A stretch of DNA of 5,470 bases from the NCBI RefSeq assembly GCF_006345805.1, contig NW_021830046.1:1-5470 (forward strand), in the 5' to 3' direction. Numbering within the stretch: the stretch's first letter is position 1; each line of letters begins with the position of its first letter. This document shows, in pieces, positions 2,608 to 2,927 of this stretch. The notes beneath the pieces are model-generated. The model was not told where the DNA came from and made no database searches. It saw only the letters and a list, made by a program, of their open reading frames with translations. Made by a program: the position numbers and the translations under genes. Source of the stretch: Octopus sinensis. Lineage: Eukaryota.

Positions 2608-2927
2608 TACGGAGATGTACTCGCATAGCAAGTAATTTGATCTGAGACCGTGTGCTGAAACACGAAAACAATTGCAGCGTGGAAGGTGTTTATAAGCCAT
2701 TTAAGAAACACACAAAAGCCGTTCGATTCACTTCAACATTTAAGTTTAATTTGTCAAAATATTTTCGTCGCAGCACGTGATGCAGCACGGACTTTGTCAG
2801 TGAACAGGTCTCGGATTTTAGCGACGAAAATATTTTGACAAATTAAACTTAAATGTTGAAGTGAATCGAACGGCTTTTGTGTGTGTTTCTTAAATGGCTT
2901 ATAAACACCTTCAACGCTGCAATTGTT
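2608..2927. mobile_element. Fold-back element with 105/107-bp inverted arms; probably inverted Penelope-like pseudo-LTR remnants (alternative: MITE)
   Basis: 2667-2771 is the reverse complement of 2821-2927 with one substitution and one 2-bp (GT) indel, around a 49-bp spacer. A ~59-bp unpaired extension lies on the left (2608-2666), (TA)n flanks both sides, and the element contains a hammerhead-like motif. The inverted repeat is certain; the class is inferred. Confidence 0.75.
2793..2842 (+). ncRNA. Minimal type I hammerhead ribozyme-like motif, G3-C8 core variant
   Basis: Stem I UUUGUCA (2793-2799)/UGACAAA (2836-2842); core GUGAACA (2800-2806) in place of CUGANGA; extra G2807; stem II GUCUC (2808-2812)/GCGAC (2821-2825, one mismatch); GAAA (2826-2829); AUAU; U16.1=2834; H17=2835. 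Confidence 0.62.

Follow-up and report, generated by a model that had tools for sequence, protein, structure and literature searches.

A candidate hammerhead ribozyme with a G3-C8 core pair in an abundant, probably Penelope-like repeat of Octopus sinensis

Can a hammerhead ribozyme lie behind a core that does not read CUGANGA? The question is raised by a repeat in Octopus sinensis (assembly GCF_006345805.1, contig NW_021830046.1, positions 1 to 5,470; these 5,470 nt are hereafter the window), in which a 50-nt motif departs from this core at two positions that remain complementary to each other. The motif exists as described, is kept throughout its repeat family and occupies the place expected of a Penelope hammerhead; we consider it likely that it is a minimal type I hammerhead with a G3-C8 pair and, in its family form, a predicted weak activity. 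The coordinates of the motif and of the insertion that carries it are collected in Table 1, and comparisons with published work refer to the covered portions of the cited articles.

Table 1. Features of the hammerhead-like motif and of the surrounding insertion, in window coordinates
Feature	Position	Strand	Basis and remarks
Left-hand (TA)n microsatellite, interpreted as target site	2570–2607	.	sequence
59-nt extension present in the inverted copy only, read as a one-sided tail of a Penelope-like element (PLE)	2608–2666	-	comparison with published PLE/PAc; outside the aligned 2770–2927
Inverted, 5'-truncated second copy, equivalent to 2821–2927 and without the 5' half of the hammerhead	2667–2771	-	sequence comparison
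Junction filler between the copies, duplicating 8 nt from the 5' end of the main copy	2772–2779	+	depth 0–88 at 2770–2775, about single-copy level
Main repeat copy, interpreted as a PLE 3' end (pseudo-LTR)	2780–2927	+	depth rises from about 2776–2781
Stem I, 5' strand	2793–2799	+	seven Watson-Crick pairs with 2836–2842
Core G3-U4-G5-A6-A7-C8-A9 (2800–2806) and one extra G (2807)	2800–2807	+	sequence; other letters all below 4% of depth in 4/4 runs
Stem II (2808–2812 with 2821–2825; G10.1-C11.1 closing pair) and loop II, 8 nt here	2808–2825	+	sequence
G12-A13-A14-A15.1 (GAAA, 2826–2829), palindromic stem III AAUAUU (2829–2834) and U17 (2835)	2826–2835	+	sequence; other letters below 4%
Stem I, 3' strand	2836–2842	+	family variant A2838G at 7–15% of depth (U-A to U.G)
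Right-hand TA-rich run, interpreted as target site	2928–2960	.	sequence

Inspection of the sequence places every element named in the first-pass annotation of this DNA at 2793–2842, in register and in the layout of a minimal type I hammerhead, and the claim that the core, GUGAACA, deviates exactly at positions 3 and 8 was also borne out. With G at position 3 and C at position 8, neither the window nor the family has the literal core CUGANGA. These are the only departures from it and G3 and C8 are still a Watson-Crick match, while U4, G5, A6, A9, G12, A13, A14, the A15.1-U16.1 pair and H17 are all in place with no variant at or above 4%. Stems I and II, including G10.1-C11.1, are complete in the majority form of the family; the window copy has one U-C mismatch in stem II (2811/2822), T2811 being rare outside this copy. 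Also present are an additional base that separates positions 9 and 10.1 (G2807) and a palindromic 15.2-16.2 segment that permits a dimer (AAUAUU, 2829–2834). In a fold of the isolated 50-mer, six of the seven stem I pairs reached probabilities of 0.87–1.0, and the stability of the 50-mer was unremarkable (z = -1.04). Judged by its letters, the motif fails the literal core definition and would work like a minimal dimeric PLE hammerhead, with a predicted cut 3' of U2835, a site taken from hammerhead numbering. The UUU triplet, earlier considered weak, is no objection, as GAAA is likewise followed by A U U U in a published oyster PLE hammerhead (PMC4209133).

How often such a motif arises by chance was estimated with a descriptor composed after the motif had been seen, which allows any Watson-Crick 3-8 pair, zero or one extra base, a stem II of at least four pairs in which one mismatch is tolerated, and a stem III of 2 bp. 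Applied to both strands of the window, it matched once, at the motif in 2793–2842. Dinucleotide shuffles matched in 3 of 1000 cases with a stem I of at least 4 pairs and in 0 of 1000 with at least 7, and 168 Mb of Markov-simulated DNA contained one site at the latter threshold, corresponding to about 7e-5 per window and 2e-6 per 150-nt element. At this simulated rate, roughly 17 chance matches are expected in the approximately 250,000 windows scanned; the match is thus rare per window but not scan-wide, and it is the family data that carry the case. These numbers cut both ways for an alternative that we regard as improbable, namely a chance look-alike carried by some unrelated SINE or MITE of high copy number, which would owe its uniformity to recent amplification rather than to selection: the post hoc descriptor and the scan-wide expectation favor it, whereas the rate per 150-nt element disfavors it.

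Rfam hammerhead covariance models gave no match at E ≤ 10, either to the whole window or to 2770–2870, a result that counts against the hammerhead reading and in favor of a chance look-alike; the Rfam matches that the window did have all fell below the gathering score and were mostly microsatellites. This non-match and the covered text of the published descriptor agree with the earlier statement that a CUGANGA-based search would miss the motif. As a negative control, chance matches to the core, stem II and GAAA in prokaryotes were inspected, and a stem I of at least 5 pairs was found in 0 of 16. Pattern scans for relatives in viral contigs, metagenome contigs and prokaryote genomes returned none, and 91 viral 15-mer matches were rejected as relatives, since they extended to at most 24 nt and are attributable to chance.

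Among 24 sequencing runs listed, 20 contain the stretch or a part of it, and for four DNA runs, one per organism, assembled contigs were aligned to 2770–2927 (10947, 6108, 4278 and 2625 contigs). Summed depth peaked at 0.7–3.8 million, compared with about 6–70 for single contigs, which, summed depth being no copy number, suggests copies in the range of 1e5 for the 3' part and 1e4 for stretches that include the core. In all four runs, 98%–99% of depth at 2811 is G, giving the family a perfect 5-bp stem II; GUCGC was therefore rightly proposed as the probable ancestral strand, and that the majority letter improves the stem argues against a look-alike. Variation was read from pooled per-position data. 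At the 18 core and stem III positions (2800–2807 and 2826–2835), no variant reached 4%, and the other variants within the motif were T2819A in the loop (3%–5%), C2825T (3%–6%) and A2838G. Both listed stem variants keep pairing, C2825T by turning G-C into G.U at a CpG and A2838G as given in Table 1, and no two-sided stem covariation was seen in the pooled family data. In a separate observation, a marine metatranscriptome run (X20) contained a 0.08 share of the stretch's words.

A second subfamily is recognizable by a 9-nt loop II, with loose ends before 2820 in 100, 82, 61 and 59 contigs of the four runs. It carries four substitutions and one indel in loop II, and across 2791–2812 it differs only at 2792 and 2811, with an identical core and identical 5' strands in both stems. 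The hypergeometric probability of this loop contrast is 0.004, a value that is biased because the loose ends are defined by the loop difference, which may be a single event, and that was computed on the loose ends listed, with 451 further ones outside it. A coding reading of the repeat was rejected, as the 8- and 9-nt loops and a 2-nt indel at 2878 break any frame.

Whether the core is conserved above its surroundings, as a functional motif had been expected to be, was answered only in part. The swapped core is kept family-wide in all four runs, the part of the expectation that stood; the contrast with the downstream flank did not reach significance, either for the core (0/18 variable positions versus 8/65, Fisher p = 0.13) or for the core and stems together (2/42 versus 8/65, p = 0.17), in a variant table that leaves out positions near the alignment ends (for example, the window copy's difference at 2913). 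A flank segment at 2880–2907 is as invariant as the core, and the p value of 0.13 is a further point for a chance look-alike. The motif is kept by the family, and selection on it is suggested.

Folding models separate the window copy from the family form. The stem II probability of the window copy is about 0.2–0.3; with G at 2811 it rises to 1.0, and stem I pairs at 0.73–0.99 (fold of 2772–2927). When a transcript that covers both arms is modeled, stems I and II drop to a pairing probability of 0.0, as anticipated by the claim that a read-through transcript would sequester the motif in a long hairpin. Given the weak stem II and this sequestration, the window copy is probably inactive, and the single locus, probably a dead fragment, is of little importance. 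In a modeled head-to-tail dimer, a 6-bp stem III is possible, but the dimer lies 3.9 kcal/mol above the minimum-energy fold, with a stem III probability of about 0.04. The weakness of this dimer counts against the favored reading; it also fits the low, dimer- or protein-dependent activity published for PLE hammerheads (PMC4209133, PMC11167929).

The setting of the motif is a fold-back insertion, as first described, with near-identical inverted arms at 2667–2771 and 2821–2927 that are one substitution and one 2-nt indel apart. The arms are alike at 2848, 2868 and 2874, the sites most evenly split in the family, which fits a single template. Both insertion ends lie in TA runs, and across the family the loose ends run into AT-rich flanks at 2923–2926 in all four runs. 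Three other opposite-strand joints, each in a single contig, lie at differing places, so fold-backs recur with variable junctions. A MITE or foldback DNA transposon was rejected, as the arms end unequally, the joints vary between contigs and the window junction is at single-copy depth. The 5' boundary of the family is sharp (2776–2781, some 20 nt upstream of the core) and may mark where the copied RNA began. The start of the tail (2640–2664, minus strand) resembles the 5' end of the main copy (2775–2800, plus strand) with a local alignment score of 20, and it may represent either a following unit that has decayed or a site of template jumping. Tandem hammerhead units do not occur in the window, and head-to-tail joints make up only a small share of the family. 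A joint from 2850 to 2793, at a depth of 431 in run X1 and 3227 in run X2, most likely represents 59-nt head-to-tail hammerhead units, with the caveat that the joint table gives no strand; a joint from 2837 to 2793 is also present at about single-copy depth.

Hallmarks of PLEs include an adjacent inverted, 5'-truncated copy, a tail of 30–40 bp at one end and a (TA)n target (Craig et al. 2021, PMC8557442). The first and last are both found here, and the one-sided tail measures 59 nt compared with the published 30–40 bp. The element ends at 2923–2927, that is, 88–92 nt beyond the predicted cut. By our own arithmetic, reverse transcription by PAc (Poseidon of Anolis carolinensis) starts 85–92 nt beyond the hammerhead cut (PMC11167929), and the 3' ends of six Hydra-clade families lie 36–115 nt beyond it (PMC8557442). 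PAc resembles the octopus insertion also in its AT-rich targets and in having two reverse transcriptase (RT) start sites that define the tail, as is proposed for the octopus, and both PAc strands are cut and extended (PMC11167929); in contrast, the PAc ORF starts in stem II (PMC11167929), and no conserved frame crosses the octopus motif. Together, the inverted truncated copy, (TA)n target and cut-to-end distance, and the one-sided tail apart from its length, support the Penelope-like setting proposed in the first-pass annotation.

No RT or GIY-YIG frame was linked to the repeat (Pfam match in 0 of 46 window frames), repeat-derived peptides were found in 0 of 5 candidates, and in two multi-stretch matches Pfam recognized neither RT nor GIY-YIG. 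Such an ORF would not be expected in truncated copies. With no RT or endonuclease frame linked to the repeat, PLE membership rests on anatomy, and the missing parent ORF also counts in favor of a chance look-alike. Eight short repeat motifs were absent from the covered portion of a curated PLE consensus set with three octopus families (PMC8557442), in which line breaks can hide matches. Against the look-alike, no tRNA gene was called in the window, the fold-back joints vary with no fixed terminal inverted repeats, and the position of the motif relative to the 3' end fits PLE hammerheads.

Other repeats share the window. Positions 1–1242 (plus strand) belong to a LINE that is unrelated to the motif, covering the 3' portion of its ORF2 with the RT end, zf-RVT and a stop at 334–336; Pfam RVT_1 scored below its cut-off and zf-RVT above. 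Nine homologues of this fragment were found, the only named eukaryote among them being Argonauta hians (57% identity), and those filed under a Herbaspirillum MAG are likely host contamination of that MAG. Opposite-oriented copies of another repeat at 3534–3824 and 4055–4344, separated by 230 nt and about 90% complementary across 259 nt, are able to form a long double-stranded RNA, and a third, more diverged copy lies at about 2254–2438. Positions 4810–5220 and 5240–5470 are presumably common octopus repeats.

Minimal type I hammerheads of PLEs have been described in many of the respects seen here. They share with the octopus motif the topology, the extra base after A9, G10.1-C11.1, a short palindromic stem III, a common U17, an AU-rich 3' flank and mostly dispersed single copies (PMC4209133), and three of four traits outside the descriptor of Cervera and de la Pena are present in it (the extra base after A9, G10.1-C11.1 and the palindromic 15.2-16.2 segment; PMC4209133). 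The consensus for the extra base is H (PMC4209133), with G in the Nasonia (PMC4209133) and Hydra-1_Obim (PMC8557442) motifs. However, the cores in Fig. S3 of PMC4209133 start with C or U, whereas that of the octopus repeat is G3-C8; its stem I has 7 bp compared with 4–5 in S. mansoni (PMC4209133), and no ORF is linked to it. The covered portion of the supplement to PMC4209133 contains no cephalopod row. Among octopus PLEs, Hydra-1_Obim and Naiad_Obim/Naiad_Ovul have (TA)n targets in common with the repeat, and the 3'-terminal hammerhead of Hydra-1_Obim likewise carries an additional G behind A9 but has a canonical C3-G8 core and other stems (PMC8557442). Animal non-LTR retrozymes are likewise short, non-coding, hammerhead-bearing and proposed to be non-autonomous PLE derivatives; they are defined as tandem arrays, whereas the octopus copy is a dispersed fold-back (bioRxiv 10.64898/2026.07.22.740005).

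A compensatory change at positions 3 and 8 has a natural precedent in U3-A8 hammerheads (Perreault et al. 2011, PMC3088659), the natural covariation named in that work, and in the Cercyon PLE of S. mansoni the U3-A8 variant is family-wide with about 1,300 matches (PMC4209133). The U-A swap takes two transitions, whereas the octopus G-C swap takes two transversions and leaves a pyrimidine in position 8, where the 2'-OH acts as general acid and G is nearly invariant (PMC6155905, PMC8495972). The same pair as in the octopus, natural here and engineered there, was made as a C3G/G8C double mutant of the PAc hammerhead, which partly restores cleavage with protein (PMC11167929), and an engineered G3-C8 variant is mentioned as data not shown in PMC3884650. 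The covered portion of PMC13282606 contains no mention of hammerhead or ribozyme. In the published literature within our coverage, to which Lunse et al. 2017 does not belong, we found engineered G3-C8 hammerheads only and no natural one. Literature pairing the hammerhead with octopus or cephalopods yielded no description of this repeat family. The 2017 collection reportedly holds many small PLE hammerhead variants, among which an octopus G3-C8 family may already be contained.

A mechanism that would account for the locus combines these elements. The active fold would contain a G3-C8 pair in place of C3-G8, and its stem III would be built by two motifs through their palindromic AAUAUU segments. 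Cleavage 3' of U2835 by the intact family form would be weak, occurring as a dimer or with the help of protein. A Penelope-type reverse transcriptase/endonuclease would nick a (TA)n site and prime cDNA synthesis on each strand, from two different points of a single uncut RNA. Of the two cDNAs, one would run through the hammerhead to about 2780, the other would start 59 nt further 3' and stop at the 3' strand of stem II, and the two would be joined head to head.

A further alternative, which we judge unlikely, though less so than a chance look-alike, is a Penelope-derived motif that no longer cuts in any copy, the swap having been fixed in a master element for which cleavage was dispensable or harmful for copying, and the fold being retained as a signal for priming or protein binding, or just passed down by a few masters. 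Octopus copies begin at about 2780, which is upstream of stem I by approximately 13 nt and does not coincide with the predicted cut; the RNA that was copied had therefore not been cut. In PAc, too, the template is predominantly uncut RNA, hammerhead mutants insert no less well than the wild type, and the cut site showed no RNA-seq read ends (PMC11167929), and in our models the all-A-U stem III is barely populated. However, a dead core would have no reason to change exactly at two paired positions with the rest remaining canonical, and the engineered double swap is partly active (PMC11167929, PMC8495972).

Splicing offers another explanation for the swap. G3 could be imposed by an overlapping splice acceptor and C8 compensate for it, with splicing exchanging the 5' strand of stem I and thereby switching the ribozyme. 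Positions 2793–2800 indeed read as pyrimidines followed by CAG, with AG at 2799–2800 and 2806–2807, and in the Penelope of D. virilis the 3' end of an intron maps to the 5' end of helix I (PMC4209133). The pyrimidine tract is short, however, no donor is known and the copies retain 2780–2800, so that such an intron would stay in the template; we consider this explanation highly improbable.

Beyond the favored reading of a family-wide motif with predicted weak activity lies a stronger claim, which we put forward tentatively and with some doubt: that this is an active natural G3-C8 hammerhead and among the most abundant ribozyme families of these genomes, borne by a non-autonomous Penelope parasite of about 150 nt with a defined 5' end and at least about ten thousand core-bearing copies per genome, hidden from CUGANGA searches, and that some "hammerhead-free" Penelope lineages may hide swapped cores. 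If true, selection would keep the 3-8 pair and not its bases, even though the change needs two transversions by way of intermediates, and the single-swap intermediates between C3-G8 and G3-C8 are inactive in vitro (PMC11167929). Ribozyme censuses built on CUGANGA would then be undercounts, with consequences for the view that hammerheads are missing from some Penelope clades (PMC8557442). The thousands of natural copies in the octopus would provide material on whether Penelope hammerheads are selected to cut.
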